Positions 667-18,897 of a DNA stretch of 22,745 nt are shown here, piece after piece. How positions within the stretch are numbered: position 1 is the first letter of the stretch; every line of letters starts with the position of its first letter. The position numbers were made by a program, and so were the translations under genes. This stretch comes from a virus (lineage: Duplodnaviria; Heunggongvirae; Uroviricota; Caudoviricetes), in the IMG/VR virus record IMGVR_UViG_2778261182_000009, positions 1 to 22,745 of that record; one strand, written 5' to 3'. Under the pieces are notes generated by a model. It ran no database searches. It had not been told where the DNA came from and saw nothing but the letters and a program-made list of their open reading frames with translations.

Positions 667-730
667 CAGACATTACAGCAGCCCTTCAGTGTGAGGGGCT
701 GCGATAATGCAGGTGTTAGAGTGCGTGTAA

Positions 731-960
731 ATGATAATCGCTCCCATTTTCACGGGTCCTTTCCGGAATCTGAAACACCGAGGGTACGCGTACGCGCAAA
801 AACGCGCTATTTATGAAAATTTTCAGGGAAAAAGCAGATCCGTTCTTCTTCTGGCTAACCTGTTGTTTAATAGAGTTTTCTTGAAAAAAAGAAAGGATCT
901 GGCAGCGGTGATTTTTCGCTGAAAAAAGCGTTTTGAGATCCTTTCTTCTTTTTGTGAGGA
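731..960. other. Lambda-type cos packaging site (cosQ-like, cosN candidate, cosB-like)
   Basis: By-eye alignment to the lambda cos region: ATGATAATC...CACGGGTCCTTTCCGG (about 731-766) matches the lambda right end and cosQ; CGCTATTTATGAAAATTTTC (805-824) and CCGTTCTTCTTC (840-851) match lambda cosB. An inverted repeat AAAGAAAGGATCT / AGATCCTTTCTT lies at about 866-945. The site is immediately upstream of the Nu1 homolog, as in lambda. Confidence 0.65.
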
Positions 961-969
961 ATATGTGCC

Positions 970-3406: not shown

Positions 3407-3409
3407 GTG

Positions 3410-3619
3410 ATGATTTATACACATGAGATGCTTTGCGAAGCGCGTCGGGCGCTGCATGAACTGATGATCGGGCGTGCTGTGGCTTCAGTCAGTAAGAACG
3501 GACGGCAGGTACAGTATTCGCGGGCGACGATTAATGAATTACGGCGATATATTGAGGAAATTGAAAGTGCGCTTGGAATGTCAGGTCGTCGCCGTGGCCC
3601 TGCAGGAGTACGACTGTGA
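3410..3619 (+). CDS. W: Head-tail joining / head completion protein (lambda gpW family)
   Basis: About 69 aa; the translation ...EARRALHELMIGRAVASVSKNGRQVQYSRATINELRRYIEEIE...RRRGPAG matches lambda gpW (...[27 protein letters not shown]...RRRGPAG). GGAGGA lies 6 nt upstream of the ATG at 3410; a GTG at 3407 is an alternative start. Confidence 0.8.
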   Translation: MIYTHEMLCEARRALHELMIGRAVASVSKNGRQVQYSRATINELRRYIEEIESALGMSGRRRGPAGVRL

Positions 3620-5187
3620 GCGGGGAACTGGTGGATCTTCATGGGCAACCTCTGCGGCATAGCATGGGATATTCCGGGGGTGGTACCGGATTTGGCGGGC
3701 AGCTTGCGGAATGGCTGCCTGCACCGGAAAGTGCTGATGTGGCACTCTTACCTTCCATTCAGCTGGGTAACGCCCGTGCGGACGATTTGGTCCGTAACAA
3801 CGGTATTGCCGCAAATGCTGTGGAAATTCATAAAGACCATATTGTCGGGCACATGTTTCGCCTGAGTTACCGACCCAACTGGCGCTGGCTGGGGATGTCG
3901 GAAGCTGATTCGCATGCCTTTATTGAAGATGTTGAGGCGGCGTGGATGGAATATTGCGATCCGGTGTTTGGTTCGATGGATGTGGAAGGGCGTCGCTCGT
4001 TTACCGAATTTATTCGTGAAGGGGTGGGGGTCCATACTTTTAACGGTGAAATTTTTGTCCAGCCCGTATGGGATACGGAATCCACGTCATTATTCCGGAC
4101 AAAATTCAAGACCATCAGTCCGAAGCGCGTCAGCACGCCCGGTTATGGCATCGGCGATCGTTTTATGCGTGCCGGAGTGGAAATCAACCGTTACGGAAAG
4201 GCGATTGCTTATCATGTTCAGGACGATGACTGGCCTGGCTACGGTGTCAGTAACTGGACACGGATTGCGGCGACGCTGCCCTCCGGGCGACCGGGAATGA
4301 TCCATGTGTTTCAGCCGCAGGAGGACGGACAGACGCGCGGGGCCAACCAGTTTTATTCCGTGATGGAGCGCCTCAAGATGCTCGACACACTGCAGGCAAC
4401 ACAACTGCAGTCGGCGGTGGTGCGGGCGATGTATGCCGCGACGATTGAATCCACACTGGATTCGGAAAAAGCATTTGAATATATCGCCGGGGTGGGAGAT
4501 GGCGGTAAAAACCCCCTGAACACCATCATGAAAGGGTATGCGCGCTATTACGCCACCAATACGGTAAAGATGGGTGGGGTTCGTATTCCGCATCTTTATC
4601 CGGGGGATTCACTGAATCTGCAGACAGCACAGAATGCGGATAATGGTTTCTCTGAACTGGAAAAGGCGCTGTTACGTTACATTGCTGCCGGACTGGGCGT
4701 GTCCTATGAGCAGCTTTCCCGTGATTATTCACAGGTCAGTTATTCCAGTGCCAGGGCATCCGCCAATGAGTCGTGGCGGTATTTTATGGGGAAACGAAAA
4801 TTTGTGGCCAGCCGTCTGGCGTCACAGATGTTTGCCTGCTGGCTGGAGGAAGCCCTTATTCGCGGTGTGATCCGCCCACCGAAATCCCGTTTCTCATTCT
4901 GGGAGGCTCGTTCCGGGTGGTGTCGTGCCGAGTGGATTGGTGCCGGCCGCATGGCGATTGATGGCCTTAAGGAGGTGCAGGAGGCGGTGATGCGTATTGA
5001 AGGTGGCCTGAGCACGTACGAGAAGGAGCTGGCCCTGATGGGTGATGACTATCAGGAGATTTTCCGTCAGCAACTGCGTGAAAGCCAGGAGCGACAGGCC
5101 GCCGGTCTTCCCCGCCCCATCTGGATAAAGGATACGTTTCAGCAGCAGATCCGACAGACAACGGGAGAAAAAGGCGATGCGTCGTAA
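3616..5187 (+). CDS. B: Portal protein (lambda gpB family)
   Basis: 523 aa, GTG start overlapping the W stop. Strong alignment to lambda gpB: GGGTGFGGQL, GNARADDLVRNNG, HVFQPQEDGQTRGANQFYSVMERLKMLDTLQATQLQSAVV, SLNLQTAQNADNGFS, LLRYIAAGLGVSYEQLSRDYSQVSYSSARASANESW, WIGAGRMAIDGLKEVQEAVMRIEGGLSTYEKE. Confidence 0.92.
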   Translation: MSGELVDLHGQPLRHSMGYSGGGTGFGGQLAEWLPAPESADVALLPSIQLGNARADDLVRNNGIAANAVEIHKDHIVGHMFRLSYRPNWRWLGMSEADSHAFIEDVEAAWMEYCDPVFGSMDVEGRRSFTEFIREGVGVHTFNGEIFVQPVWDTESTSLFRTKFKTISPKRVSTPGYGIGDRFMRAGVEINRYGKAIAYHVQDDDWPGYGVSNWTRIAATLPSGRPGMIHVFQPQEDGQTRGANQFYSVMERLKMLDTLQATQLQSAVVRAMYAATIESTLDSEKAFEYIAGVGDGGKNPLNTIMKGYARYYATNTVKMGGVRIPHLYPGDSLNLQTAQNADNGFSELEKALLRYIAAGLGVSYEQLSRDYSQVSYSSARASANESWRYFMGKRKFVASRLASQMFACWLEEALIRGVIRPPKSRFSFWEARSGWCRAEWIGAGRMAIDGLKEVQEAVMRIEGGLSTYEKELALMGDDYQEIFRQQLRESQERQAAGLPRPIWIKDTFQQQIRQTTGEKGDAS

Positions 5188-6793
5188 TTTATCGCATATT
5201 GCCGCCATGGCATTTAATGAACCGCTTTTACTGGAGCCCGCCTATGCGCGGGTTTTCTTTTGCGCGCTGGGTAAAGAGATGGGGGCCGGCAGCCTTGCCG
5301 TTCCTCAGCAGGCTGTTCAGCTTGATGCTGATGGTATGCAACTGGCTGTGACTGACTATATGGCGGGCGGTCAGCGTCCGGCAAAGAGTTACCAGGTGAA
5401 GAATGGCATCGCCATTCTGCCGGTGAGCGGCACGCTGGTGCATAAACTGGGTACCCTGCGCCCTTACTCCGGCATGACAGGCTATGACGGCCTGACTGCC
5501 CGTCTTCAGATGGCGGTGAATGATCCGGATGTGCGCGGCATTTTGCTGGATATCGACAGCCCGGGCGGTCAGGCTGCCGGGGCGTTTGACTGTGCTGACA
5601 TGATTTACCGCCTGCGGGAACAGAAGCCCGTGTGGGCGCTGTGTAATGATATGGCCTGTTCAGCCGCCATGTTGCTGGCGGCAGCCTGTACGCGTCGGCT
5701 GGTCACGCAGACGGCAAAAATTGGTTCGATTGGTGTGATGATGGCGCACACCAGTTACGAGAAACAACTGGCACAGGAAGGGGTGGACATCACGCTGATT
5801 TACTCCGGGCAGCACAAGGTTGACGGCAACAGTATTCAGGCATTGCCGGCAGGTGTGCGTGCAGATTTTCAGCGCCGTATTGATGAGGCCCGCCGGATGT
5901 TTGTCGACAAGGTGGCGCTTTATACGGGGCTGAGTTCAGAGGCGGTGATGAATACCGAGGCTGCCGTTTATGACGGTCAGGCAGGCATTGATGCAGGCCT
6001 GGCTGATCAACTGATTAATGCTGCAGATGCCGTTGAAGTGATGGTTTCTGTACTGAATGACTCTGTTACGAAGGAGAATGCAATGACTGTTAAAAATCTC
6101 ACCGTTGCTGAAGCGGTGGCCCAGGAAAATCAGCGCGTGATGGGGATCCTGAATTGTCAGGAGGCGAAAGGGCGCGAGCAACTGGCGCAAATGCTGGCAG
6201 GTCAGCCTGGAATGACGGTTGAGCAGGCGAAAACGTTGCTTGCAGCTGCGCCGGTTGCCGGTACTGACAGCACGGGTGATCAGATTATGGCGCTGCCGGA
6301 AGCAAAGGGGCGTGAGCAACTGGCACAGATGCTGGCAGGTCAACCGGGGATGACGGTGGAGCAGGCGAAAGCGTTTCTGGCAGCAGCCCCTGCTGCCAGT
6401 GCTGCAGGCACAGGCGATCAGATTATGGCGTTGCCGGAAGCTAAAGGGCGTGAACAACTCGCGCAGGCGCTGGCTGAACAGCCGGGAATGACCGTTGACC
6501 AGGCAAAAACGTTACTGGCGGCGGCACCGGTTGCCGGTTCTGCAAGTGTCGGCGATCAGATTATGGCGCTGCCGGAGGCGAAAGGGCGCAAGCAACTTGC
6601 ACAGGCACTGGCAGAACAACCGGGAATGACGGTGACGCAGGCGAAAACGTTGCTGGCAGCTGCACCGGCGGCATCGCAACCGTCACAGGAAACACTTTTT
6701 GATCGCTTTATGGCACAGCATGCTGCCAGTGCGGTTTCCGGAGGCGGAACTGCCGGGCACGGAGAAGAAGATCTGCTGATGAGTATGCCGTAA
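5177..6793 (+). CDS. C: Head maturation protease / minor capsid protein C (lambda gpC, S49 peptidase family)
   Basis: The N-terminus MRRNLSHIAAMAFNEPLLLEPAYARVFFCAL matches lambda gpC (MTAELRNLPHIASMAFNEPLMLEPAYARVFFCAL). The protease core is conserved (PVSGTL, PYSGMTGY, PVWALCNDMACSAAMLLAAA, TGSIGVMMAH, LIYSGQHKVDGN, TEAAVYDGQ...IDAGLAD). The C-terminal part overlaps the Nu3 scaffold frame as in lambda. Confidence 0.88.
   Translation: MRRNLSHIAAMAFNEPLLLEPAYARVFFCALGKEMGAGSLAVPQQAVQLDADGMQLAVTDYMAGGQRPAKSYQVKNGIAILPVSGTLVHKLGTLRPYSGMTGYDGLTARLQMAVNDPDVRGILLDIDSPGGQAAGAFDCADMIYRLREQKPVWALCNDMACSAAMLLAAACTRRLVTQTAKIGSIGVMMAHTSYEKQLAQEGVDITLIYSGQHKVDGNSIQALPAGVRADFQRRIDEARRMFVDKVALYTGLSSEAVMNTEAAVYDGQAGIDAGLADQLINAADAVEVMVSVLNDSVTKENAMTVKNLTVAEAVAQENQRVMGILNCQEAKGREQLAQMLAGQPGMTVEQAKTLLAAAPVAGTDSTGDQIMALPEAKGREQLAQMLAGQPGMTVEQAKAFLAAAPAASAAGTGDQIMALPEAKGREQLAQALAEQPGMTVDQAKTLLAAAPVAGSASVGDQIMALPEAKGRKQLAQALAEQPGMTVTQAKTLLAAAPAASQPSQETLFDRFMAQHAASAVSGGGTAGHGEEDLLMSMP
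6083..6793 (+). CDS. nu3: Scaffolding protein (lambda Nu3-like), nested in-frame in the 3' part of gene C
   Basis: An in-frame ATG at 6083 is preceded by AAGGAG at 6071-6076. The downstream sequence (MTVKNLTVAEAVAQENQRVMGILNCQEAKGREQLAQMLAGQPGMTV...) resembles lambda Nu3 (…ITAAVAAENSRIMGILNCEEAHGREEQARVLAETPGMTV…). Separate expression is inferred from the lambda precedent. Confidence 0.55.
   Translation: MTVKNLTVAEAVAQENQRVMGILNCQEAKGREQLAQMLAGQPGMTVEQAKTLLAAAPVAGTDSTGDQIMALPEAKGREQLAQMLAGQPGMTVEQAKAFLAAAPAASAAGTGDQIMALPEAKGREQLAQALAEQPGMTVDQAKTLLAAAPVAGSASVGDQIMALPEAKGRKQLAQALAEQPGMTVTQAKTLLAAAPAASQPSQETLFDRFMAQHAASAVSGGGTAGHGEEDLLMSMP
6161..6670 (+). repeat. In-frame tandem repeat, about 4 copies of 138 bp (46 aa), inside the C/Nu3 scaffold coding region
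   Basis: Copies begin at about 6161, 6299, 6437 and 6575. Each encodes EAKGREQLAQ(M/A)LA(G/E)QPGMTV(E/D/T)QAK(T/A)(L/F)LAAAP...GDQIMALP; the last copy diverges after AAAPAAS. Seen directly in the nucleotide and protein sequence. Confidence 0.85.
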
Positions 6794-6830
6794 GCGTTAT
6801 CCGTGATTCAGATAAATCAGGAGACTGAAA

Positions 6831-7166
6831 ATGATTAAAACAACCACAGAAAAGCGCGCGGATGTGCATATTTTTGCCGGAAGCGATCCGGCGCATACCG
6901 CAACAGCCACCAGTGGTATCAGTGCTGCCACGCCTGCACTGACGCCACTGATGCTGGATGACGCCACCGGCAAACTGGTGGCATGGGATGGTCAGAAAGC
7001 CGGAACGGCAGTGGGCGTGCTGGCTCTGGCGCTTGCCGGAACAGAACCCATGCTGACGTACTACAAAAGCGGTACATTTGCCACTGAGTCGCTGGTCTGG
7101 CCTGATTCTGTGGATGCGGTGAAAAAAGCCAACGCATTTGTGGGAAGTGCCATCAGCTACGCCTGA
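6831..7166 (+). CDS. D: Head decoration protein (lambda gpD family)
   Basis: 111 aa; the translation (...[37 protein letters not shown]...[16 protein letters not shown]...) aligns with lambda gpD (...[37 protein letters not shown]...FYKSGTFRYEDVLWPE...). Good RBS CAGGAG upstream. Confidence 0.88.
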   Translation: [111 protein letters not shown]

Positions 7167-7187
7167 TGGTGAAGTGATTGACTGAAA

Positions 7188-7220
7188 AAACGGGTCGCGA
7201 TGCGGCCCGTTTGTGTTTCT
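7188..7220 (+). terminator. Putative intrinsic terminator / attenuator hairpin between D and E
   Basis: AAACGGGTCGC...GCGGCCCGTTT imperfect GC-rich stem followed by GTGTTTCT, directly after the D stop codon. Confidence 0.35.
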
Positions 7221-7235
7221 GAAGGAAAATAAATT

Positions 7236-8264
7236 ATGGGGTTATTTACCACGCGTCAGTTACTCGGGTACACCGAGCAGAAAGTGAAATTTCGTGCGCT
7301 GTTTCTGGAGCTGTTCTTTCGTCGCACGATCACTTTCCATACTCAGGAAGTCATGCTGGATAAAATTACCGGCAAAACACCGGTTGCGGCGTATGTGTCT
7401 CCGGTGGTGTCAGGCAAAGTGCTGCGCAGCCGTGGTGGTGAAACCCGCGTGTTACGTCCCGGTTATGTAAAACCAAAACACCGCTTTGATTATCAGCAGG
7501 CAGTGGAACGTCTTCCGGGGGAAGATCCGGCCCGTCTTAATGACCCGGCCTACCGCCGCCTGCGTATTCTGACTGACAACCTGAAGCAGGAAGAGCAGGC
7601 GATTGTGCAGGTGGAAGAAATGCAGGCGGTCAGTGCCGTTCTGCAGGGGAAGTACACCATGAGCGGGGAACAGTTTGAGACGGTGGAAGTGGATTTTGGG
7701 CGCTCTGCCGCCAATAACATTACGCAGGCTGGCGGACGCGAATGGTCACAGCAGAATGCTGACACCTTTGATCCAACGCACGATCTGGATGCGTACTGCG
7801 ATTTTGCCTCCGGGACCATCAATATCGCGATTATGGATGGCACGGTCTGGCGTATGCTGAATGGCTTTAAGCTTTTCCGTGAAAAACTGGATACCCGTCG
7901 TGGTTCAAAATCGGAACTGGAAACCGCGCTGAAAGATCTGGGCTCCGTGGTCTCTTTTAAGGGGTATTACGGTGATCTGGCCATTGTTGTGGCGAAGACA
8001 ACGTATGTTGACGAAAACGGGGATGAACAGCGTTATCTGCCGGAAGGTACACTGATTCTGGGGAATACTCAGGCGGAAGGCGTCCGTTGTTATGGTGCCA
8101 TTCAGGATAATCAGGCGCTGAGTGAAGGGATCACCTCTGCAATTCGTTATCCAAAACACTGGCTGGAGGTGGGTGATCCTGGTTGCGAATATACCATGAC
8201 ACAGTCTGCGCCGTTGATGGTGTTGCCGGATCCTGACGCGTTTGTGGTGGTTCAGGTGAAATAA
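7236..8264 (+). CDS. E: Major capsid protein (lambda gpE family)
   Basis: 342 aa; extensive alignment to lambda gpE: YVSPVVSGKVLRSRGG, PGYVKPKH, RLPGEDPARLNDPAYRRLRI, EEMQAVSAVLQGKYTMSGE, KLDTRRGSKSELETALKDLG, LGNTQA, YTMTQSAPLMVLPDPDAFVVVQ. Confidence 0.93.
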   Translation: MGLFTTRQLLGYTEQKVKFRALFLELFFRRTITFHTQEVMLDKITGKTPVAAYVSPVVSGKVLRSRGGETRVLRPGYVKPKHRFDYQQAVERLPGEDPARLNDPAYRRLRILTDNLKQEEQAIVQVEEMQAVSAVLQGKYTMSGEQFETVEVDFGRSAANNITQAGGREWSQQNADTFDPTHDLDAYCDFASGTINIAIMDGTVWRMLNGFKLFREKLDTRRGSKSELETALKDLGSVVSFKGYYGDLAIVVAKTTYVDENGDEQRYLPEGTLILGNTQAEGVRCYGAIQDNQALSEGITSAIRYPKHWLEVGDPGCEYTMTQSAPLMVLPDPDAFVVVQVK

Positions 8265-8266
8265 GA

Positions 8267-8295
8267 CGGGGCGGGATATACCCGCCTTTTTCTTT
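8267..8295 (+). terminator. Rho-independent terminator after the major capsid gene
   Basis: GGCGGG (8270-8275), loop ATATA, CCCGCC (8281-8286), then TTTTTCTTT, immediately after the E stop codon. Confidence 0.7.
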
Positions 8296-8314
8296 ATCGC
8301 ACGGGAGAGATGTG

Positions 8315-8680
8315 ATGACAAAAGAGCAGATGACGGAACGCCTTCAGGCGCTGGCAGTGATTCTGGGGCGTGAAGCAGATATTTCAGGTTCAAAGGCCGA
8401 TCTTGAGCAGCGCCTGGCGGAATGGGAAGAGGAGGCCGCCGGATTCGATGGGGAGGATACCGGGGCGGAAGAGGTGGACAACGATGCATCCGGCGACGGG
8501 ATGCATTCTGAGCGGGGACTCGTCCGGGTGCGCATGCTGAAAACAGCGCATATGCCAGCCTGTGATGCTGTGACGGGAAAAATGTTGATGTTCGCCCGGG
8601 CCTCCAGTGTTGTGCTGGTTAATGAAGCCGCACTTCCTGCATTGCTGGCGGACGGTCTGGCAGAAAAAATTCGGGAGTAA
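8315..8680 (+). CDS. FI: DNA packaging / head assembly protein (lambda gpFI family)
   Basis: The N-terminus MTKEQMTERLQALAVILGREADISGSKADLEQRLAEWEEE resembles lambda gpFI (MTKDELIARLRSLGEQLNRDVSLTGTKEELALRVAELKEE); synteny after E. A GTG at 8312 is an alternative start. Confidence 0.75.
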   Translation: MTKEQMTERLQALAVILGREADISGSKADLEQRLAEWEEEAAGFDGEDTGAEEVDNDASGDGMHSERGLVRVRMLKTAHMPACDAVTGKMLMFARASSVVLVNEAALPALLADGLAEKIRE

Positions 8681-9084
8681 TGATGTTTGATAATCTGTTC
8701 GATCAGGCCATGAGTGATGCGGATAACATCATCCTGGATACGATGGGGACGGAAATCAGCATATATCCGGGCGGCACGGAAAGAAAAATCCGTGCCGTTT
8801 TTGATGCCCCGGCAGATAACACCGGGATGAACACTGGCAGCGGCGAAATTCGTGATACTGCGCCCGTGTTATTTACCCGGAGCGCATGGGTTGCCGGACT
8901 GAAAAAATATGACAGGGTCATGATCCACGGCGAACCCTACCAGGTGGTCGATCCCGGCTGGGATGAGTCAGGCACGGCGGGTCATGGTGTGATTACCATT
9001 ACTCTTGCGCGGGGAGAACCCGGAAGAAGTACACCTGCTGCCCCTGTCCGACCGAGTAAACGCTATGGCAGTCAGAGAGCATGA
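8680..9084 (+). CDS. FII: Head-tail joining protein (lambda gpFII family) with a divergent C-terminal region
   Basis: The N-terminus MMFDNLFDQAMSDADNIILDTMG...RAVFDAP resembles lambda gpFII (MADFDNLFDAAIARADETIRGYMG...RGVFDDP). Start overlaps the FI stop (TAATG). The C-terminal third does not resemble lambda FII. Confidence 0.7.
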   Translation: MMFDNLFDQAMSDADNIILDTMGTEISIYPGGTERKIRAVFDAPADNTGMNTGSGEIRDTAPVLFTRSAWVAGLKKYDRVMIHGEPYQVVDPGWDESGTAGHGVITITLARGEPGRSTPAAPVRPSKRYGSQRA

Positions 9085-9787
9085 GCGAAGCAGTGCCCGG
9101 CAGCGACGGCTGGCACGAAACCTCGTCGTCGATATTGATGAAGATGAGGTGCTGAGCATTATCGCTAAACTGGGTGGTTCAAAAAGTCAGATCCGTAAAG
9201 CCTGGGGTGTGGCACTGAAAAGAGCCGCGTCCGCACTGCGGATGAAGGCTATGGCAGAGTTTAAAAAACAGGTTGCCCCACGCAGTCAGAAAATGATCAA
9301 AAAGCGTGTTCTGCATAATTTTATCATTCGTCGTAACGGTGATGAGTTTGATGAGGCGAAGGTGTGGTTTGGCCTGAACGCCATCAAAGTACGTGATCTG
9401 CGCGGACGTATCAGTGGAGGGCGACGCGGTGAACGCCATCAGTTGCGCGATGAACGGGGACGTTTTGCACCGGCCACACGCCGAAGACAGGCCAGAGAAA
9501 TCCGTTTTAAACCTGCCGGGGAGGCAATACCGGTCACTACCTGGTCAGGTGAAGAGGCTTTCATTAATGAATTTGAGTCTGAAAACCGGAGCGGACGCAT
9601 TTCACGACGTAAGACGGTACTGGTCCGGCAGGCATCCGGACGACGAAGGGTGCGCGAAGCAGAAATTGATATTTATGAAGCCATGCTGAACCGTATAGAG
9701 GATTTTGTTTTCCCTGATGCGGAAGCACTGATCCTGAAAAATTTTGAGCATGAACTGAAATTCCGGGTATTTAAGGGGCTGGAGTGA
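9065..9787 (+). CDS. Hypothetical, strongly basic (Arg/Lys-rich) protein at the head-tail module junction; possible neck or tail completion protein
   Basis: ORF 9005..9787; the first in-frame ATG outside the FII frame conflict is at 9065 (MAVREHERSS...), so the start is uncertain. Very Arg-rich (e.g. RRGERHQLRDERGRFAPATRRRQAREIRFK, RRKTVLVRQASGRRRVRE). No homolog recognised; the function is inferred from position only. Confidence 0.45.
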   Translation: MAVREHERSSARQRRLARNLVVDIDEDEVLSIIAKLGGSKSQIRKAWGVALKRAASALRMKAMAEFKKQVAPRSQKMIKKRVLHNFIIRRNGDEFDEAKVWFGLNAIKVRDLRGRISGGRRGERHQLRDERGRFAPATRRRQAREIRFKPAGEAIPVTTWSGEEAFINEFESENRSGRISRRKTVLVRQASGRRRVREAEIDIYEAMLNRIEDFVFPDAEALILKNFEHELKFRVFKGLE

Positions 9788-10350
9788 TGGAACCATTGAT
9801 GATGGGAACCTGGCATCAGGCAGTGATTGACAGTCTGAAACAAATTCCCTGGGTGGAAGATGCCGATGAGTACCCGGAAAAAGTGACGCAACTGGTGACG
9901 CCTGCCGTGTTTGTGGATGTACCCGGCTGGGACAAGGCTCAGTTTGCCGACGGGCAGACACGGGTCACGCTGAAATGCGATCTGTTTGTGGTGACAGACC
10001 GGGCCGGGAAGACGGAAAACGTGCCAAAACCGCAGATATTTGCCCGCTGTCTGGCAATGGATTTATCTGACTGGATTGATGGAGCCACGTTCGGGCTGGA
10101 TAACGTTGACCCGGCGGTTTTTATCGATGCTGAGGTGGATACCTTCGACCGGCTGCTGGACGACTACATCGTTTTCCGTGTCTCTTTTGAACAGGACATT
10201 CCGGTCGGCGAAGATCCGTTTGCAGTTCCGGCAGGTGCGCCGTTACAGGAAGTCTGGCTGGGTAAAGTACCGGAAACCGGTAAAAAGCATGTGCAGGATT
10301 ATCGTCTTATCTGGAAAGCGGAGGGCACCGGCGATGAGTCTGGCGGATGA
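9784..10350 (+). CDS. Hypothetical acidic protein, possible tail completion or virion morphogenesis protein (occupies the P2 gpR/gpS position)
   Basis: 188 aa ORF with start overlapping the previous stop and end overlapping the gpV start. It lies immediately upstream of the V-W-J-I block, where P2 encodes the tail completion proteins R and S. No direct homology recognised. Confidence 0.45.
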   Translation: MMEPLMMGTWHQAVIDSLKQIPWVEDADEYPEKVTQLVTPAVFVDVPGWDKAQFADGQTRVTLKCDLFVVTDRAGKTENVPKPQIFARCLAMDLSDWIDGATFGLDNVDPAVFIDAEVDTFDRLLDDYIVFRVSFEQDIPVGEDPFAVPAGAPLQEVWLGKVPETGKKHVQDYRLIWKAEGTGDESGG

Positions 10351-10957
10351 AGTGGCAGAGTTACGCCGCAGGGTGGCGGACATGGTCCGTCGCGGCGTGG
10401 TGGAAGAGGTGATCCCGGGTAGCCCGGTGATGGTCCGGGTGGATATCGGAGATGTGCTTTCGCCGCCGTTGCCCTGGATTCAGGTGCAGTCCGGGCGTTA
10501 CATGCAGGTCAGTAATTACCCGGCACCAGGAGATGCGGTCACGGTGATATCGGAGGCAGGTGATCTGCGTAATGGTCGGGTGTATCCGGGGGCCAACATT
10601 GACGCGATTCCGGTACCGGCGGGCAGTGAACACGAGCATGTTATTTTGTTTGATACCGGAACGGAGATCCGTTACGACCGTCAGGCTAATGCCCTGTCCA
10701 TCACGCTGGCTGAAGGCGGTAGCTATAAAATCACCGGCAGGGGAACGCTGGACGGTCCGGTGGAAATCACGGATACCCTGACTGTGCAGGGAAAAACGAA
10801 GATTAATGCCGATACGCAGGTTCTTGGCAATATCGGTGCCTCACAGGAGATCACCGACAAAACCGGTAGCATGAGTAAAATTCGCGAAATTTATAATACT
10901 CATGATCACCCTGGCGACAGCGGGGGAACCACCCGTAAACCTAACCAGAAAATGTAA
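10334..10957 (+). CDS. V: Baseplate spike / assembly protein V (P2 gpV family)
   Basis: ORF 10040..10957; the homologous protein begins at the ATG at 10334 (MSLADEVAELRRRVADMVRRGVVEEV...), resembling the P2 gpV N-terminus. The C-terminal ...HDHPGDSGGTT... matches the P2 gpV ...HKHPGDSGGTT... motif. Confidence 0.82.
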   Translation: MSLADEVAELRRRVADMVRRGVVEEVIPGSPVMVRVDIGDVLSPPLPWIQVQSGRYMQVSNYPAPGDAVTVISEAGDLRNGRVYPGANIDAIPVPAGSEHEHVILFDTGTEIRYDRQANALSITLAEGGSYKITGRGTLDGPVEITDTLTVQGKTKINADTQVLGNIGASQEITDKTGSMSKIREIYNTHDHPGDSGGTTRKPNQKM

Positions 10958-10980
10958 ACGCCGCACCGGCGTTTTTTTTT
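10957..10980 (+). terminator. Putative intrinsic terminator / attenuator between V and W
   Basis: AACGCCG, loop CAC, CGGCGTT, followed by a run of nine T, immediately after the V stop codon. Confidence 0.5.
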
Positions 10981-10992
10981 CGGAAAAATTTC

Positions 10993-11349
10993 ATGATTGG
11001 TATTGATTCAGCCACCGGCAGATATCTGCACGGTAACGAACATTTGCGTCAGTCCGTCACCGATATTTTATCAACACCGGTCGGCAGCCGGGTACTTCTC
11101 AGGGAATACGGCAGCAGGTTGTTCAGTCTGCTTGATAACCCACAGGATGATTTCACGCGGGTGAGGATTGTCCGTGAAACGGCAACCGCCCTTGAGCGCT
11201 GGGAACCCCGCCTGACCCTTCGGCGGGTGGAGGTGACGTGGACCGGAGAAGGAAGCGCCTGGCTGACGCTTGTCGGGGTGAACAACGAGACACAGGAAAC
11301 GATTCGACTCGAGGAGATAAAAATTGGCAACGTCTCAGGCAATCATTGA
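10993..11349 (+). CDS. W: Baseplate assembly protein W (P2 gpW family)
   Basis: 118 aa; ...SVTDILSTPVGSRVLLREYGSRLFSLLDNPQDD...ALERWEPRLTL... aligns with P2 gpW (...SIGDILRTPVGSRVMRRDYGSLLASMIDQPQ...LKWEPRVTL...). Confidence 0.82.
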   Translation: MIGIDSATGRYLHGNEHLRQSVTDILSTPVGSRVLLREYGSRLFSLLDNPQDDFTRVRIVRETATALERWEPRLTLRRVEVTWTGEGSAWLTLVGVNNETQETIRLEEIKIGNVSGNH

Positions 11350-12238
11350 TCTGTCCGCGATACCGGTACCGGATGCGGTGGAGGTGCCGGACACCGCTGT
11401 GCTGGTCACTCAGATAGTGGCGAAATATCAGGAGCTGGATACGTTGTTTTCGGCCATGGTGGAATCCGATCCGGCGTATAAATGGGCAGAGGCACTGGCT
11501 TTTCGTGTGGCGCTGATGCGCCAGCAGGTCAATGATGCTGTCCGGGGTGTACTGCTTGCCAGTGCCCGCAGGAACGATCTGGATCAGATTGGTGCGAATT
11601 TTCAGGTGCAACGTCTGGTCATTACCCCGGCAGATGACAGCACCATTCCGCCCACGCCTGCGGTGTATGAAGATGATGATGCTTTTCGCGAACGTATCCA
11701 GTTGTCATGGGCACGACTCAGCACCGCAGGCGCGAAAAACGCATATCACTATTTTGCACAGAGTGCCGATCCTGATGTGCTGGATGTGAAAGCCTACGGG
11801 CCGGAAACGCATTCACAGGAAGGGCGTGTTTTTCTTTATGTGTTATCGCGAACCGGAAACGGTACGGCATCACAACCCCTGCTGGATAAGGTGGCAGCGT
11901 CAGTCAATGATGATGAAATTCGACCTCTGACGGATTTTGTCAGCGTCCGTGCGGCAGAAATTATTCCCTACGATGTGGTGGCGGATATCCATATTCCCTA
12001 CGGGCTTGATGGTGAACTGGTGATGAAAAATGCCCGTCAGGCGCTGCAGACCTACACTGACAGTGTTCACCGGATTGGTTCTGTGGCGTCCTGCTCCGGT
12101 ATGGACGGAGCCCTGCATCAGACGGGGGTGATCACGGTGGCACTGAAATCGCCGGTCAGTGATATTGTTCCGGTGATGGGACAGGCTCCATGGTGTCGCT
12201 CAGTCACACTGAACAAGGTGGAGACAACCGATGAATGA
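11324..12238 (+). CDS. J: Baseplate assembly protein J (P2 gpJ family)
   Basis: 304 aa; probable TTG start at 11324 with GAGGAG 7 nt upstream. Conserved blocks against P2 gpJ: IIDLSAIPVPD, NDLDQIGANF, RLVITPADDSTIPPTPAV, RERIQ, YHYFAQSADPDV, VRPLTDFVSV. Confidence 0.85.
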   Translation: MATSQAIIDLSAIPVPDAVEVPDTAVLVTQIVAKYQELDTLFSAMVESDPAYKWAEALAFRVALMRQQVNDAVRGVLLASARRNDLDQIGANFQVQRLVITPADDSTIPPTPAVYEDDDAFRERIQLSWARLSTAGAKNAYHYFAQSADPDVLDVKAYGPETHSQEGRVFLYVLSRTGNGTASQPLLDKVAASVNDDEIRPLTDFVSVRAAEIIPYDVVADIHIPYGLDGELVMKNARQALQTYTDSVHRIGSVASCSGMDGALHQTGVITVALKSPVSDIVPVMGQAPWCRSVTLNKVETTDE

Positions 12239-14816
12239 CAAAATCAGAAGCATACTTCCTGTCAGCGCCAGCCGGGCAGAGCGGGTGGTGGACAGTACCG
12301 CCGGTGATATGCTGGCGGAAATCGCGGTCTGTCTGATCCGCTATGTCAAAAATCCCGATTTATGTCCGACGGAATTGCTGCCATGGCTGGCCTGGGAAAT
12401 GTCAGTGGATACCTGGAATGAGCACTGGACGGAGGCGGAAAAAAAGGCGGCGATAAAACGTGCTGCCTATATCCATCGTCACAGGGGAACAAAAGCCGCA
12501 CTGAATGAATCCCTGGCAGACAGTCCGTTCCGGTCGCAGATTGTGGAGTGGTATGAGCAGACGCCACCGGGAGATCCCTATACCTTCCGGCTGAATGTGG
12601 AGCAGAAGGATCTGCCGGTTCTGATGAGCGACCACCAGGATTTGAAACATGCCGTACTACGGGCCAAAAATCTGCGCAGCTGGTTCAGTATTCACGTTTA
12701 TGGAAACTGCCGGGGGAACGGATATGGTTATGGCTATGTGACGGCGACGGAAAAACTGAAAAATAAAATCATGCCATCACAGATCCTGTTGTCGCCGGAC
12801 AGTGTGCAACTGGCTCCCGGAGAAACGGTATCCATAAAAGTGACGATATTGCCACTGATCGCTGAAGATCGCACCTTCACTGTTCACCTGGCAGATGAAC
12901 GTGTGGCTGATATACAGGTTGATGGTGATGTAATCACCCTGACCGGCAGACAGTTCGGGTCCACCACGGTGACTGTGATGACGGTTAATGGTGTGACCGC
13001 CACGTTACCCGTAAGCATTGTGTCAGTCACCCGCGTTTTGATCCGGGTGGACAGTGTCAGCAGGCCATTATTTATGGTGGATCCCAGAGAAACAGGATTC
13101 ACCATTGATTATGGTGACGGAACAGATTCCCGGGACTACACCATTTCAGGGAACGATGTTATGACTACCCGGACACTGGCACCGGGGACGGAACTGATGC
13201 TGACGGTGAAAAACTGTGAAAGCATTACGTTTTATAAAACATATACGTCATCAAACCCGTTGCTGGAGATCATTCAGGTCTGTAGTCTGCGCACAAGTAT
13301 GTATCAGTTTGCATACGGGCACCGTGCGCTGAGAAAAATTCATGACGGAGCATTTGATTACCTGGTAAATGTGAATGATTTTGGCAGGGCGTTTATGGGG
13401 TGTTCTGCTCTGGAAACAGTCCCTGAACATTTGTTTGCCGCCTGTCAGCGGGTGCTCTATTTTTCGTATCTTTTCTGTGACTGTTCATCGTTGTCTGCAA
13501 TCCCGGATGGCCTTTTTGCCGGTGCCGGAGAAGTGGTTGATTTTCGTTATGTATTCAGTGGTTGCAGGAAACTTGCCTCCCTGCCTGAAGGATTGTTCGC
13601 CGACGCGGTTAATGCCACTGATTTTTCGTATGCATTCAATAACTGCAGTATGCTGACAGCACTACCCCCGCGTTTGTTTGCGGGAGCCGTATCAGCAACA
13701 AATTTCCACTATGTTTTTAATGGTTGTCGGGCGCTGACTTCCCTGCCGGATGATTTATTCCACGGACTTCATCAGGCCAGTATTTTCTCCCGGGCTTTTG
13801 CACTGACAGGTCTGACGCACCTGCCGGATAACCTGTTTGCTGAAACCCGTGGAACAAATTTTGACAGCGTTTTTTACTCTGCGGAAAAACTGACACGGGT
13901 TCCCCGCACGTTGTTCCATCTGCCGCTTCATGACGGGAATGTCAGAATTATACTGGATGGTGCTTTTGAGTTTTGTAGTGGGTTACTTACAATTGAGCCG
14001 GGTGTGTTTGATGACATTACGACGAAGATACGTTCAGCAAAGCGTGTATTTCGTCGCTGTTATGCACTGAAAGCGATACCGTCCCGTCTGTTTGCTGGTG
14101 CGGTGAACTGTGAATCTTTTAACACATCATTTGAAAGTTGTCTGGCGCTGACCTCCACTGGTGATGAAGTTTTCTCGGGGAGCGGGATCCAGGATGCACA
14201 ATTAATTTTTGCTTATTGCAGTAACCTGACAACGACAGGGGAAAGGTTGTTTGCCGACTGTCGTTCCCTGACGTCATACAACAATTGTTTTTCATCCTGT
14301 TCGTCACTAAGTCAGATCGGTGCAGGTATGTTGTCCGGCTGCGTTTCCCTGAGAACGGCTTATCATCTGTTGACCGATTCCGTGGGGAGTAACCGGGTGA
14401 CAACCGTGCCAGGGGATTTGTTCCGGGGATGTGTTTCCCTGAACAACATCAGCAGTCTGTTTGATTCCTGTGGTCAGTTAACATCAATTCCGGATGAACT
14501 TTTTGCTGATTGTCAGACGATACAGCATGCGGGGGGCGCATTTTCCCGGTGCGTGCGGTTACAACGTGTCCCGGCGGATATTGTTACGCCATCGACGACT
14601 GCATCCAGCCTGGCTTCCATGTTCCGCAACTGTGAACAGCTTGAAATGGATATCAACGATATATTTACCCGGAATTTCCCGTCGGGCTGTAATCTGCTGA
14701 CTATTTTTACCGGCTGTAAAAATGTGACCGGCAGTAAATCTGAATTTCTTGCAAAATTTCCGTCGCCCTCTGATGCAGAGAATGCCTTTTACGGGTGCGA
14801 CCGGCTGACAGACTGA
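12231..14816 (+). CDS. I: Baseplate protein I homolog (P2 gpI-like N-terminal ~175 aa) fused to a ~680 aa extension: predicted Ig-like domain plus a Cys-rich LRR-like repeat array
   Basis: One uninterrupted 861 aa ORF. Residues about 40-175 align with P2 gpI (NPDLCPTELLPWLAWEMSVDTWNEHWTEAEKKAAIKRAAYIHRHRGTKAAL...PPGDPYTFRLNV vs P2 NPDTCPANLLPWLAWAFSVDRWDEKWPEATKRAVIRDAYFIHCHKGTIGAI...PPGTFRLDI). Downstream come an Ig-like segment (SPDSVQLAPGETVSIKVTILP...TTVTVMTVNGVTATLPVSIVS) and 15-20 repeats of about 24 aa of the form F..C..L..(I/L)P..LFA......F...F. P2 gpI is only about 176 aa. Confidence 0.8.
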   Translation: MNDKIRSILPVSASRAERVVDSTAGDMLAEIAVCLIRYVKNPDLCPTELLPWLAWEMSVDTWNEHWTEAEKKAAIKRAAYIHRHRGTKAALNESLADSPFRSQIVEWYEQTPPGDPYTFRLNVEQKDLPVLMSDHQDLKHAVLRAKNLRSWFSIHVYGNCRGNGYGYGYVTATEKLKNKIMPSQILLSPDSVQLAPGETVSIKVTILPLIAEDRTFTVHLADERVADIQVDGDVITLTGRQFGSTTVTVMTVNGVTATLPVSIVSVTRVLIRVDSVSRPLFMVDPRETGFTIDYGDGTDSRDYTISGNDVMTTRTLAPGTELMLTVKNCESITFYKTYTSSNPLLEIIQVCSLRTSMYQFAYGHRALRKIHDGAFDYLVNVNDFGRAFMGCSALETVPEHLFAACQRVLYFSYLFCDCSSLSAIPDGLFAGAGEVVDFRYVFSGCRKLASLPEGLFADAVNATDFSYAFNNCSMLTALPPRLFAGAVSATNFHYVFNGCRALTSLPDDLFHGLHQASIFSRAFALTGLTHLPDNLFAETRGTNFDSVFYSAEKLTRVPRTLFHLPLHDGNVRIILDGAFEFCSGLLTIEPGVFDDITTKIRSAKRVFRRCYALKAIPSRLFAGAVNCESFNTSFESCLALTSTGDEVFSGSGIQDAQLIFAYCSNLTTTGERLFADCRSLTSYNNCFSSCSSLSQIGAGMLSGCVSLRTAYHLLTDSVGSNRVTTVPGDLFRGCVSLNNISSLFDSCGQLTSIPDELFADCQTIQHAGGAFSRCVRLQRVPADIVTPSTTASSLASMFRNCEQLEMDINDIFTRNFPSGCNLLTIFTGCKNVTGSKSEFLAKFPSPSDAENAFYGCDRLTD

Positions 14817-14826: not shown

Positions 14827-16251
14827 ATGCATGGATTAACACTGACGACAGCAGGCGCGGCAGAGATTGAGGCTGCCTACCAGTCAGGACAGGTGGTGAC
14901 CATCACGCACGTGCTCACCGGTGATGGTGGCGGTCAGAAACTGCCTGAAACACCGGATGAAATGGCTGCAATGACAGGGCTGTATGGTCAGTTTGGTCAG
15001 GAGCCACTTTCTGCCGGTGAATCCGGAGAAGGATTTATCCGTGGTGAAATTGTTATTGACTGCAAAAAATACCCCGGAAAAACGCTGCGTGAACTGGGGA
15101 TGGTGAGTGCCAGCGGCACGCTGATAGCGTACGGGCGTTATCCGGATACGTATTTACCGGCACAGACAGATTCCGTCATCAAAGAGGTTATTCTGACGCT
15201 GGTACTGGGGCTGACGCATGCGCAGAATGTGACGCTGGAGCTTGACCCGTCCAGGGTGATTATCACGCAGGAGGCAGGAGATAAACGCTATCTGCGCATC
15301 AGCGAGAATCTTGCCGATGTGGAAGATAAAGATGAAGCAGTTGATAACCTCGGGTTAAAACCGACGGTGGACAAGGCAAAAAATGCCGTTCAGCGCGATG
15401 GTGACACCATGACCGGGGAGCTGAAAATCAGGAGAGTGAATGCGCTGCGAATTTTCGACGAAGCTTTTGGCCTGATTTTTCGTCGTTCGGAAGAGTGCCT
15501 GCACCTTATCCCTACCAGTGAAGGTCAGGGTGAAAATGGCGATATTGGCCCCCTGCGTCCGTTCACTATTAATCTGCGGACCGGTGAGATATCCATGTCG
15601 CACAAAGTGTCTGTTGGTTTTGGCTCTCAGGTGCAGGGCGCACTGGGTATCGGTGTTCAGAATGCGCTGGGCGGTAACTCAATTGCTTTCGGGGATAACG
15701 ATACAGGTATAAAACAAAACGGCGACGGCATTCTGGATGTTTATGCGAATGGACAGCATGTATTTCGTTTCCAGAATGGTGTGGCGACAGCGTTAAAAAA
15801 TATTCAGGCCGGAAATGCTAAAAAATTCACGTTATCCAGCGCCAACAACTCAACGAAAAACGCAACGTTTAATTTATGGGGCAATTCGTCCCGTCCTGTA
15901 GTTGCAGAGCTTGGTGATGATTCCGGCTGGCATTTTTACAGCCAGAGAAATACGGATAACAGTATAACGTTCGCTGTAAACGGACAGATGGTCCCGTCAA
16001 ATTATGGAAATTTCGATGCCCGTTACCAGACCAAATCAGGGGGCGTGCAGAATTTTCAGTACACCAGTGAGGTGTTTTACAACCCTGGTGGGAATGAGCG
16101 CAGCTGGACGTTTCGGGCACCTTCTGGTTGTGTTTTGTCAGGCATTAATGTTCAGGACACTGGCAGTAACTCTGCAGATAATATCGGTGGCGTGTATTAC
16201 AAACAGGCTCAGATTTATATTGATGGCGCATGGCGCTCAGTATCAGGTTAA
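14827..16251 (+). CDS. H: Tail fiber protein (P2 gpH family)
   Basis: 474 aa; the N-terminus ...LTTAGAAEIEAAY...TGDGGG is fiber-like, and a long block NALGGNSIAFGDNDTGIKQNGDGILDVYANGQHVFRFQNGVATALKNIQAGNAKKFTLSSANNSTKNATFNLWGNSSRPVVAELGDDSGWHFYSQRNTDNSITFAVNGQMVPSNYGNFDARY matches the P2 gpH family. Followed by a fiber assembly gene. Confidence 0.85.
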   Translation: MHGLTLTTAGAAEIEAAYQSGQVVTITHVLTGDGGGQKLPETPDEMAAMTGLYGQFGQEPLSAGESGEGFIRGEIVIDCKKYPGKTLRELGMVSASGTLIAYGRYPDTYLPAQTDSVIKEVILTLVLGLTHAQNVTLELDPSRVIITQEAGDKRYLRISENLADVEDKDEAVDNLGLKPTVDKAKNAVQRDGDTMTGELKIRRVNALRIFDEAFGLIFRRSEECLHLIPTSEGQGENGDIGPLRPFTINLRTGEISMSHKVSVGFGSQVQGALGIGVQNALGGNSIAFGDNDTGIKQNGDGILDVYANGQHVFRFQNGVATALKNIQAGNAKKFTLSSANNSTKNATFNLWGNSSRPVVAELGDDSGWHFYSQRNTDNSITFAVNGQMVPSNYGNFDARYQTKSGGVQNFQYTSEVFYNPGGNERSWTFRAPSGCVLSGINVQDTGSNSADNIGGVYYKQAQIYIDGAWRSVSG

Positions 16252-16264: not shown

Positions 16265-16792
16265 ATGGAACTCGTAAACGTTACGCGTTACTACCCTGAA
16301 GACATGCCTTATGGTGAAGGCATTCAGTATTTCCGTAGTGAAGACGGGCAGGATTTTTATGAATCACTGGATAAATTCACGAAGAAATACAAGCTGTGCA
16401 CGCATCCTGAAACCGGCATTATTTATTCCATGGCGGAAGATGTATCCCGTCTTTATCCCGTTGGTTTTACCATTGTGGAAGTGGATGAACTACCGGAAGG
16501 ATTTTGTATTGAAGCCCGCTGGTATTATAAAGACGGTGAAGTACTGCCGGTCCCTGTAGACTACCGGCAGCAGGCAGAGTCGGAGCGTGCACGTCTTACT
16601 GCGATTGCCGAACGGGAAATATCCGATAAGAAGACGGATTTACTTCTGGGAATCATCAGTGATGAGGAAAAAGAAAAGCTGACAGCCTGGCGTGTTTACG
16701 CAAAGGAACTGCAGGTGATGGATTTCAGCGCCATTGTGGATAAGAGCGCTTATGACAATATTGCCTGGCCTGAATCACCACAAAATATCTGA
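16265..16792 (+). CDS. G: Tail fiber assembly protein (P2 gpG family)
   Basis: 175 aa, immediately downstream of the fiber gene, with a suitable RBS (AAGGAAAAATA-ATG). The ...RQQAESERARLTAIAEREI... segment resembles the conserved region of tail fiber assembly chaperones. Confidence 0.75.
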   Translation: MELVNVTRYYPEDMPYGEGIQYFRSEDGQDFYESLDKFTKKYKLCTHPETGIIYSMAEDVSRLYPVGFTIVEVDELPEGFCIEARWYYKDGEVLPVPVDYRQQAESERARLTAIAEREISDKKTDLLLGIISDEEKEKLTAWRVYAKELQVMDFSAIVDKSAYDNIAWPESPQNI

Positions 16793-18884: not shown

Positions 18885-18897
18885 AAAGGAGATGCTT

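Follow-up and report, generated by a model that had tools for sequence, protein, structure and literature searches.

The two genes that lie between the lambda-type FII gene and the P2-type V gene of this virus, here called ORF A and ORF B, encode members of known protein kinds and are not orphans. Very probably, they supply both tail-completion functions of a canonical type-1 neck on a contractile tail, a reading drawn from homology and fold, from the order and conservation of the genes and from the pattern of charge. ORF A would be a tail completion protein (TCP, or Neck1) of the lambda gpZ type and ORF B a tail terminator like the R2-pyocin collar (PA0615). A preliminary description of the window (the whole stretch of 22,745 nucleotides that was analyzed) had reported two ORFs between FII and V, and both were found on the + strand with the same coordinates. 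It had also argued that this slot must hold the neck, tail terminator and tail completion functions, and profile and fold comparisons agree, with ORF B as the terminator and ORF A as the TCP. Families that are still labelled 'hypothetical' or 'unknown function' (by PGAP and as PHROG 1072) can now be named as terminator (PA0615/collar) and completion protein (gpZ).

The FII gene (8680..9084, + strand) encodes a lambda-type head-closure or head-tail joining protein (Hc1), the predicted docking partner of the terminator on the head side. It matches Pfam Phage_attach (E 2.6e-13) and PHROG 82 'head closure Hc1' (E 5e-30), and exceeds the NCBIfam tail_join_FII cutoff (26.3 bits; cutoff 25). ORF A (9065..9787, + strand; 240 aa) starts at ATG 9065, ends with TGA 9785-9787 and shares 20 nt with the 3' end of FII. 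This overlap had been given as a reason to doubt the start of ORF A. The overlap is real, but position 9065 is backed both by RefSeq/PGAP, whose start is the equivalent of 9065, and by close homologues, which have the start Met in common, including a Salmonella protein with 66 % identity. More distant homologues start about nine residues further in. A longer form from TTG 9005 was rejected, having support from neither homologues nor PGAP. A shorter form from GTG 9149 was also rejected; a later start is ruled out because R12, R15, R18 and D23 are conserved, and these N-terminal residues would be lost.

The mechanical ORF of ORF B has 188 aa and begins at GTG 9784. The start at ATG 9787 (9787..10350, + strand; 187 aa) overlaps the TGA of ORF A by one base and agrees with the N-termini of homologues, while PGAP places the start four codons downstream of this ATG. 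The stop codon (10348-10350) lies past the start of V at 10334, so that these two genes also overlap. V (10334..10957, + strand), the first baseplate gene and directly 3' of the terminator, encodes a baseplate spike of the P2 gpV type. It matches PHROG 9992 'baseplate assembly protein' (E 1.5e-24), shows weak Pfam matches to Phage_base_V and Apex, and is labelled 'phage baseplate assembly protein V' by PGAP. Both ORF A and ORF B are 'hypothetical' in RefSeq/PGAP.

For ORF B, the R2 pyocin collar PA0615 (PDB 6u5f / 6u5j) was the best match in both sequence and fold (TM ~0.63-0.69). When the family profile (A3) was searched against PDB, 6u5f_A 'Collar PA0615' was found with an E-value of 2.4e-8 over profile positions 86-171, and a smaller ORF B profile (A2) reached 7.7e-5 against PA0615. 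The AF2 model of ORF B has an overall pLDDT of 80, with values above 90 for most of residues 1-145. Its best Foldseek matches are the pyocin R2 collar (3.7e-8), the Mu terminator 9khy, A-1(L) gp7, T5 p142 and lambda gpU, and the monocin cap, the diffocin collar and T4 gp15 are found among the others. In total 28 PDB matches were obtained at E <= 1e-3, and the named ones are terminator, collar, cap or neck assemblies. Two further fold matches (2gjv and 4acv) are not annotated as such.

Lambda gpU, P2 gpR, the Mu terminator (9khy) and T5 p142 thus have the alpha/beta terminator fold in common with ORF B. Sequence similarity to gpU and gpR is undetectable, and the PHROGs are different (37 for gpU and 65 for gpR vs 1072 for ORF B, 'unknown function', E 8.5e-51). 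The ORF B family gave no signal by hhalign against the lambda gpU and P2 gpR sequences (gpR probability <1 %), and ORF B did not match the Pfam terminator models (Phage_tail_U/gpU, P2 gpR and DUF3168 / gp17). The 45 family members produced just two weak Pfam matches, to Phage_Mu_Gp37 (E 0.05). One ORF B homologue carries the UniRef label DUF3168.

The likeness to PA0615 extends to gene position. The R2 pyocin cluster opens with PA0615 (PMC1250226), just as the tail module here opens with ORF B. The baseplate and tail genes of the R2 pyocin match the P2-named Pfam families that were found in the window. The gene right after PA0615 is presumably a gpV homologue. The lambda-like gene run reaches through gpZ, and the contractile-tail module begins at the collar gene, an arrangement shared with R2 pyocin. 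ORF B and PA0615 are similar in length (187 aa vs 171 residues in the deposited chain) and their conserved C-terminal extensions align, but their identity is only 19 %. Another difference is that the pyocin has no head and PA0615 no TCP partner, whereas ORF B must dock FII; PA0615 needs no FII-binding face because the pyocin is headless.

The C-terminal arm of ORF B (about residues 145-187; 10219..10347, + strand) is absent from lambda gpU. Its sequence is conserved, with P152, L158, G159, P162, G165, H168, D171 and Y172 near-invariant, and it aligns with the C-terminus of PA0615, while its pLDDT is below 50. In the diffocin collar, the N-domain sits on the tube and a C-terminal beta-strand makes a 'handshake' with the sheath (PMC11329794). 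By analogy, the arm of ORF B is a candidate strand for joining the last sheath ring.

Myophages can use two proteins as tube and sheath caps (PMC11784142), and T4 gp15 is among the fold matches of ORF B. It might therefore be supposed that ORF A and ORF B form separate sheath and tube terminator rings as gp15 and gp3 do in T4, but we consider this extremely improbable. The fold of the ORF A model is unlike that of a terminator, and none of the terminators in PDB was matched; ORF A groups with gpZ. For ORF B, the closest matches (the pyocin collar, the Mu terminator and the A-1(L) terminator) each cap the tail with a single protein.

The tail completion protein reading of ORF A begins with PHROG 27 'tail completion or Neck1 protein', which is matched by ORF A residues 15-239 (E 4e-26) and also by lambda gpZ (3e-69) and the Z protein of Wolbachia phage WO (7e-27). 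A deep HMM search returned 185 relatives of ORF A, and 125 of them were aligned as an extended family (alignment A4). Pfam Minor_tail_Z (PF06763) is matched by 61 of these 125 members (best E 1e-12). When compared with lambda gpZ by hhalign, A4 gave a probability of 96 % and an E-value of 3e-9 over 143 columns, a link that is transitive, via intermediates; as an HMM it scored 40 bits against gpZ. With the close-family profile (A1), the protein of phage WO that is annotated as Z scored 22.8 bits, and lambda gpZ gave no signal. Since A1 is blind to lambda gpZ, the link to gpZ passes through PHROG 27 and intermediate sequences.

Other searches were negative or uninformative. ORF A did not match Pfam Minor_tail_Z or HK97-gp10_like at E <= 0.1, and its family showed a probability <1 % against P2 gpS by hhalign. 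Against PDB, profile A1 found spurious designed-repeat and ribosomal matches only and A4 found none. Single-sequence phmmer searches of PDB with ORF A and ORF B returned only the MCT10 transporter (E 0.4) and nothing meaningful. The whole Pfam and NCBIfam scans gave zero matches for either protein. It was claimed earlier that neither protein resembles those of lambda or P2. This holds for Pfam and NCBIfam only, and not for PHROG 27, which ORF A shares with gpZ, nor for the homology between ORF B and PA0615. Membership in gpZ/gpU-type families is essentially what the profile searches found, but the subfamilies concerned are poorly annotated.

The AF2 model of ORF A (pLDDT 89) contains helices at residues 40-70 and 204-237 with a beta domain (82-198) between them. 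Long helices with a small beta domain are also the architecture of TCP models (PMC11784142, PMC11661146), lambda gpZ included, for which long terminal helices and a beta domain are predicted (PMC11661146). Searched against BFVD, the model matched 'minor tail protein', 'tail component' and HK97 gp10-family models with E-values of 1e-5 to 0.05. In the Foldseek search of PDB the best E-value was no better than 0.3, and no solved structure and no terminator was matched.

ORF A resembles lambda gpZ further in its slot straight after FII, its strong basicity and the position of an Arg-rich loop. This loop (about residues 112-150, RGRISGGRRGERHQLRDERGRFAPATRRRQAREIRF; 9398..9514, + strand) was delimited by alignment with relatives and has pLDDT values of 75-84. 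In an alignment that included short relatives and the phage WO Z protein, it aligns with the SRRRRRKKGQR loop of lambda gpZ. It is about 20-25 residues longer in the Escherichia/Salmonella/Citrobacter clade, and the matches of short relatives to the A1 profile are split in two, leaving out the loop segment. ORF A has a second short insert (NEFESENRSG, near residues 160-176) and an extra basic N-terminus, and it is the longest of the 125 relatives. Thus it differs from gpZ in length (240 aa vs 192 aa), in the expanded loop, the second insert and the N-terminus, and in missing Pfam PF06763. In addition, ORF A works with a contractile tail and is followed by a gene other than gpU. In this clade a contractile tail carries both a completion protein of the lambda gpZ type and a collar of the pyocin type. 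The enlarged loop could have a function of its own as an adaptation, perhaps as an extended DNA-end clamp or plug in a wider contractile-neck lumen, but this suggestion is a doubtful one.

ORF A had been described as extremely basic with Arg clusters and ORF B as acidic, and the measured values confirm it. ORF A contains 15.8 % Arg and 7.1 % Lys, has a net charge of +21 and a pI of 11.0, and its Arg clusters lie at residues 1-20, 111-150 and 171-200. For ORF B the pI is 4.25 and the net charge -18. For the 19 other window proteins that were measured, Arg ranged from 0.9 to 11 % and pI from 4.5 to 6.7. The contrast is a trait of the family: all 125 relatives of ORF A have a pI of 9.5-12 (median 10.5), with ORF A only 17th in Arg content, and all 45 relatives of ORF B have a pI of 4.05-4.84. 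The corresponding values are 12.0 for lambda gpZ and 10.5 for P2 gpS, and lambda gpU (4.05) and P2 gpR (4.5) are acidic as ORF B is.

Such basicity and Arg clustering, together with the clade-specific Arg-rich insertions, could also suit an ejected or internal DNA-binding protein (a pilot, or one that protects the genome end) that is merely gpZ-like and not a structural part of the neck. SPP1 particles without gp16.1 look normal and misroute their DNA (PMC11099176), and the TCP of phage 80alpha contacts the DNA end (PMC11661146). However, such behaviour overlaps what is known of TCPs, so that this reading is hardly a competitor; charge of this kind is found throughout the family, and both the gene position and the PHROG of ORF A are those of gpZ. 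We regard it as improbable. The earlier suggestion that the basic protein might bind nucleic acid or be internal nevertheless agrees with the located 80alpha gp51 (PMC11661146).

Gene order was compared in 21 related loci from about 10 enterobacterial genera, and the order (FII), TCP, terminator, V was found in all 21. Vibrio phage Valp1 and Wolbachia phage WO have the same block. Around it, head types and the order of tail genes have been exchanged, and the identity of ORF A and ORF B stays at about 40-50 % irrespective of the upstream head type. This wide conservation of the block and the steady identity therefore show that the arrangement is old and stable rather than a newly made junction. 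The step from the gpZ-type gene to the collar gene marks the point at which the two module lineages meet in the widespread lambda-head / P2-tail architecture, to which phage WO also belongs.

The preliminary description had proposed the two proteins as special adaptors from a recombination junction, and the conservation of the block in Enterobacterales, Valp1 and WO speaks against this. In its full form the proposal is that ORF A and ORF B serve as adaptors specific to one lineage, having arisen or been recruited where a lambda-type head and a P2-type tail recently recombined, so as to make otherwise incompatible modules fit. The genes do stand just where head genes of the lambda family give way to baseplate genes of the P2 family, and by family the lambda-like run ends at ORF A and the pyocin-like run starts at ORF B. 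Both also lack any Pfam or NCBIfam match and are 'hypothetical protein' to PGAP. Against this, both families are large and old and occur in ordinary phages and a tailocin, and FII, Z, terminator and V stand together in the 21 loci, the Vibrio phage and WO with any head type. The conservation data have already largely refuted recent adaptors, which we hold to be decidedly improbable.

The canonical order of neck genes is Ad-Hc1-Ne1-Tc1, with gpZ and gpS as Ne1 proteins (Lopes 2014, PMC4362835), and the slot of ORF A between Hc1/FII and the terminator gene fits this order in the window and in the 21 loci. In siphophages the terminator gene is likewise placed after the TCP gene (PMC11099176, Table 1). 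P2 is different: R is followed by S, the reverse order, and orf30 and a terminator separate both from V. P2 gpS belongs to PHROG 26 and ORF A to PHROG 27, and gpS and gpR are functional counterparts only of ORF A and ORF B (PMC4362835, PMC11099176).

In Valp1, Citrobacter phage Chris1 and WO, neighbouring homologues of ORF A and ORF B immediately precede V, and in Hafnia phage yong2 the matches to ORF A and ORF B adjoin each other. The full order in Valp1 (gpW-like adaptor, portal, protease, capsid, Hc1, Ne1, ORF B homologue, V) is the same as here, while the head of Chris1 has a ClpP-capsid fusion. The ORF A counterpart in WO is annotated 'minor tail protein Z'. The homologues in these four phages show 26-53 % identity and are shorter, with 196 aa for the Valp1 TCP and 165 aa for the Z protein of WO, and the expansion of the Arg-rich loop that marks the clade is missing from them.

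For the stoichiometry, virion location, sheath handshake and DNA contact of the two proteins we infer the following neck. The gpW adaptor, the portal and the FII head closure would be followed by the tail completion protein and the tail terminator. ORF B would form a hexameric ring that caps the finished tube, its conserved C-terminal arm probably locking the last sheath ring as well, like the pyocin and diffocin collars, and its upper face would dock the FII ring of a filled head. ORF A would join the tail at about the same step. Its probable place is inside the lumen of the neck, on the tape measure, whose N-terminus is encoded from window position 19318, and on the end of the DNA, where it would aid head-tail joining and correct DNA delivery, and its strong positive charge would serve DNA contact.

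The models for such a role are SPP1 gp16.1, which acts both in tail-head joining and in DNA routing (PMC11099176), and 80alpha gp51, a monomer within the neck lumen that contacts the DNA end and the N-termini of the tape measure (PMC11661146). In lambda reconstructions gpZ was not seen, and in T5 the assigned TCP is at the tail tip (PMC11784142). 80alpha gp51 is the sole located member of the wider TCP superfamily; as the location comes from one siphophage only, the luminal placement of ORF A is an extrapolation. We know of no contractile-tailed phage in which a TCP has been located so far. The place and role of TCPs in such phages lend the proteins some further interest, and this easily induced E. 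coli prophage could therefore be tractable for locating one.

The gene families are carried by 82 of 5,426 complete E. coli genomes (about 1.5 %), and they are also found in several isolated phages and many Enterobacterales prophages. Megablast of the phage collection gave no match, and the phage relatives came up only by protein-level search. Scanning the whole window with Rfam revealed no RNA family, and neither repeat nor promoter scans of the region brought up anything relevant within ORF A or ORF B. One 20-nt direct repeat was observed in two copies, probably by chance.

When the window was divided into modules using Pfam and PHROGs, a lambda-family head module and a P2/R-pyocin-family contractile tail module were observed. 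The head module consists of Nu1 (970-1518), gpA (1448-3406), gpW (3410-3616), the portal (3616-5187), an S49 protease (5177-6793), D (6831-7166), the major capsid protein E (7236-8264), FI (8312-8680) and FII (8680-9084). The tail module includes V (10334-10957), W (10993-11349), J (11324-12238), I (12231-14816, +), a fibre (14827-16251), a fibre chaperone (16265-16792), the sheath (16847-18322), the tube (18319-18837), a chaperone (18892-19200), U (20967-21461) and the tail protein D (21645 to the end). The ORF at 19318-20970 (+; 550 aa) is presumed from its position to encode the tape measure; it has no Pfam match at E ≤ 0.001 and its homologue is labelled 'hypothetical protein' by PGAP. A 115-aa ORF 5' of the small terminase gene (319-666, +) likewise has no Pfam match at E ≤ 0.001.

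Between the two modules lie ORF A (9065-9787; 240 aa) and ORF B (9787-10350; 187 aa from the ATG at 9787 or 188 aa from the GTG at 9784). The 5' end of ORF A overlaps FII by 20 nt, the ATG of ORF B overlaps the ORF A stop codon, and the 3' end of ORF B overlaps the start of V by 17 nt. The values computed from sequence were 15.8 % Arg, net charge +21 and pI 11.0 for ORF A, and net charge -18 and pI 4.25 for ORF B (pI 4.5-6.7 for the 19 other window proteins measured). The coordinates and pI values bear out the preliminary description of one Arg-rich basic and one acidic protein at the junction. Its statement that neither has a recognisable similarity to lambda or P2 proteins does not hold, as ORF A shares phrog_27 with lambda gpZ and ORF B matches the R2 pyocin collar PA0615. 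The profile and structure-prediction check it proposed placed ORF A in the gpZ family (PHROG 27) and ORF B with the PA0615 collar and terminator folds. Each protein is a diverged new representative of a known family, overlooked by current Pfam, NCBIfam and PGAP annotation.

ORF A is a tail completion protein (TCP) of the lambda gpZ type. Over nearly its full length it falls in phrog_27, 'tail completion or Neck1 protein' (E-value 4e-26), together with lambda gpZ (3e-69) and unlike P2 gpS, which falls in phrog_26. When 1.84 billion representative proteins were searched by profile, 185 relatives were obtained. Pfam Minor_tail_Z was matched by 61 of the 125 relatives in the extended alignment (best E-value 1e-12), and this alignment matched lambda gpZ with 96 % probability (E-value 3e-9). 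ORF A itself had no Minor_tail_Z match in the Pfam scan, and the profile of its close family alone gave no alignment with gpZ; thus, its links to Pfam and to gpZ itself are transitive. The PHROG 27 link is direct. The AlphaFold model was confident (pLDDT 89). Helices are predicted at the N-terminus (26-81; one long helix spans 40-70) and a further long one at the C-terminus (204-237), with a beta domain between them (82-198). Foldseek found no solved structure matching this model, which is expected because, to our knowledge, almost no TCP structures have been solved. The best BFVD matches were unnamed 188-aa phage proteins; models labelled 'minor tail protein', 'tail component' or HK97 gp10 family came next.

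ORF B belongs to the pyocin-collar type of tail terminators. Its Pfam and NCBIfam scans and a single-sequence search of the PDB gave nothing, and PHROGs placed it in phrog_1072 ('unknown function'). A nine-sequence family profile matched the solved PA0615 structure (6u5f) with an E-value of 7.7e-5, improving to 2.4e-8 with 45 sequences. The AlphaFold model (pLDDT 80; >90 for most of residues 1-145) has a predicted alpha-beta-beta-beta-alpha-beta-beta topology, and its top Foldseek match was again the pyocin collar (3.7e-8), followed by the Mu terminator (9khy), the cyanophage A-1(L) gp7 terminator, T5 p142, the monocin cap, lambda gpU, the diffocin collar and T4 gp15. The C-terminal ~40 residues were modelled with low confidence; they align with the PA0615 C-terminus and contain conserved P152, L158, G159, P162, G165, H168, D171 and Y172. 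In the diffocin collar, the N-domain sits on the tube and a C-terminal strand enters the handshake sheet of the last sheath subunit (PMC11329794); by analogy, we infer that ORF B binds the tube and joins the sheath in this way. Like ORF B, which is first in the tail module, PA0615 opens its cluster, PA0615-PA0628 (PMC1250226).

The start of ORF A at 9065 is supported by the equivalent PGAP start and by close homologues that have the same initial Met, one of them a Salmonella protein with 66 % identity. Distant relatives start 9 residues later, and a later start was excluded by conserved N-terminal Arg/Asp positions. For the ORF B homologue (WP_089642961.1; 15500-16051 of the prophage locus in E. 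coli 401651, NZ_CM129040), PGAP begins 4 codons 3' of the stop-overlapping ATG; in other genera the homologues begin with M-EPL../MAEPLL.., which supports the earlier ATG at 9787.

The charges of both proteins are family traits. The pI was 9.5-12 (median 10.5) across the 125 ORF A relatives, among which ORF A ranked 17th by Arg content, and 4.05-4.84 across 45 ORF B relatives. Lambda gpZ (14.6 % Arg, pI 12.0) and gpU (pI 4.05) form a similar pair, as do P2 gpS (pI 10.5) and gpR (pI 4.5). ORF A is the longest of the 125 because its Arg-rich loop (RGERHQLRDERGRFAPATRRRQAREIRF) is expanded by ~20-25 residues. This expansion is common to Salmonella and Citrobacter relatives, and lambda gpZ has SRRRRRKKGQR at the same position. 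A second short insert, NEFESENRSG, is found in the closest clade only.

The homologues of ORF A and ORF B were adjacent in every locus where both were read. The pair lies immediately 5' of V in Citrobacter phage Chris1, Vibrio phage Valp1 and Wolbachia phage WO, and the two matches are adjacent as a gene pair in Hafnia phage yong2. In Valp1, the whole gpW-to-V order is that of the window. The ORF A homologue there already carries the annotation 'tail completion or Neck1 protein', and the one in WO 'minor tail protein Z'. WO (MN180248, 6222-7979) and Valp1 (6664-8674) share an FII-like gene, gpZ, a PA0615-like gene and V, and an older WO record labels the ORF B homologue 'similar to hypothetical protein of Pseudomonas aeruginosa'. 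Among 21 related loci (Pantoea, Scandinavium, Enterobacter, Erwinia, Citrobacter, Serratia, Rosenbergiella, Cedecea, Rouxiella and Salmonella), none departs from the order (FII), TCP, terminator, V. On either side of this block, the head is of the S49 protease/D/E type or has a ClpP-capsid fusion with a cement protein, and the tail genes run either V-W-J-I...sheath or V-sheath...U-D-W-J-I; all four combinations are present among loci L004-L025 and the window. Identity of ORF A and ORF B was 39-54 % under either upstream head type. From the constant order and the head-independent identity, the pair is assigned to the tail module of a lineage that is old and widespread, and not to a recent junction. 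The proposal of novel adaptors at a recombination junction is therefore unsupported, as the block is kept in the 21 loci, Valp1 and WO. By family affiliation, the lambda-like run reaches through gpZ and the pyocin-like run starts at the collar gene.

The arrangement is a canonical type-1 neck, with adaptor, head closure (Hc1), Neck1 (Ne1) and tail terminator (Tc1) in the order described in PMC4362835; in that earlier survey, a gpW-like adaptor had been noted in one myophage. The earlier guess that the two ORFs fill the neck, terminator and completion slot was right. Upon the homology, fold, synteny, conservation and charge shown here, the following steps are proposed from relatives. A hexamer of ORF B would end polymerisation of tube and sheath, its C-terminal arm would tie the sheath to the tube, and it would present a face binding the FII ring. 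ORF A would be added to the tail at about the same step, where it would help the terminator to bind and the head to join; later it would contribute to the correct routing of DNA, as was shown for SPP1 gp16.1 (PMC11099176). Like 80alpha gp51 (PMC11661146), it most likely occupies the lumen, in contact with the DNA end and the N-termini of the tape measure; the alternative suggestion that ORF A binds nucleic acid agrees with what is known of TCPs. This placement has its caveats: lambda gpZ has not been detected in lambda maps and the assigned TCP of T5 is at the tail tip (PMC11784142), and the neck channel of myophage 812 is without a TCP (PMC12886913). The remaining interest lies in the position that TCPs take in contractile-tailed phages and in the clade-specific Arg-rich expansion of ORF A.

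The window constitutes the late (virion) operon of a prophage of E. coli. Among 5,426 complete E. coli genomes, 82 carry the 8300-11000 segment with 93-97 % identity, chromosomal in every case, and the prophage in NZ_CM129040 adjoins a truncated ydfJ. In that prophage, the region 5' of the terminase genes (1-6100 of the locus) contains a tRNA-Gly, a DNA methyltransferase, a TerB-family protein and a lysis cassette of two holins and an M15 peptidase, and the prophage borders the truncated ydfJ and DinI-like pseudogenes. Several E. coli relatives align to the segment only to query position 2496 (window ~10795), which indicates a mosaic breakpoint in the C-terminal part of the V spike gene, not at the head-tail boundary.

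The gpI homologue (12231-14816, +) is 861 aa, compared with the 531-nt I gene of P2 (~176 aa). Its N-terminal Tail_P2_I domain is followed by an Ig-like domain (Big_2) and by leucine-rich repeats of the BspA type (LRR_5, E-value 5e-8), and the extension looks like an unusual receptor-binding or decoration addition on the baseplate wedge protein. Intrinsic-terminator-like hairpins with T-runs (+) were observed directly 3' of E (8268-8288) and of V (10956-10974). They flank the FI-FII-TCP-terminator-V group and may be attenuators setting stoichiometry in the late operon.
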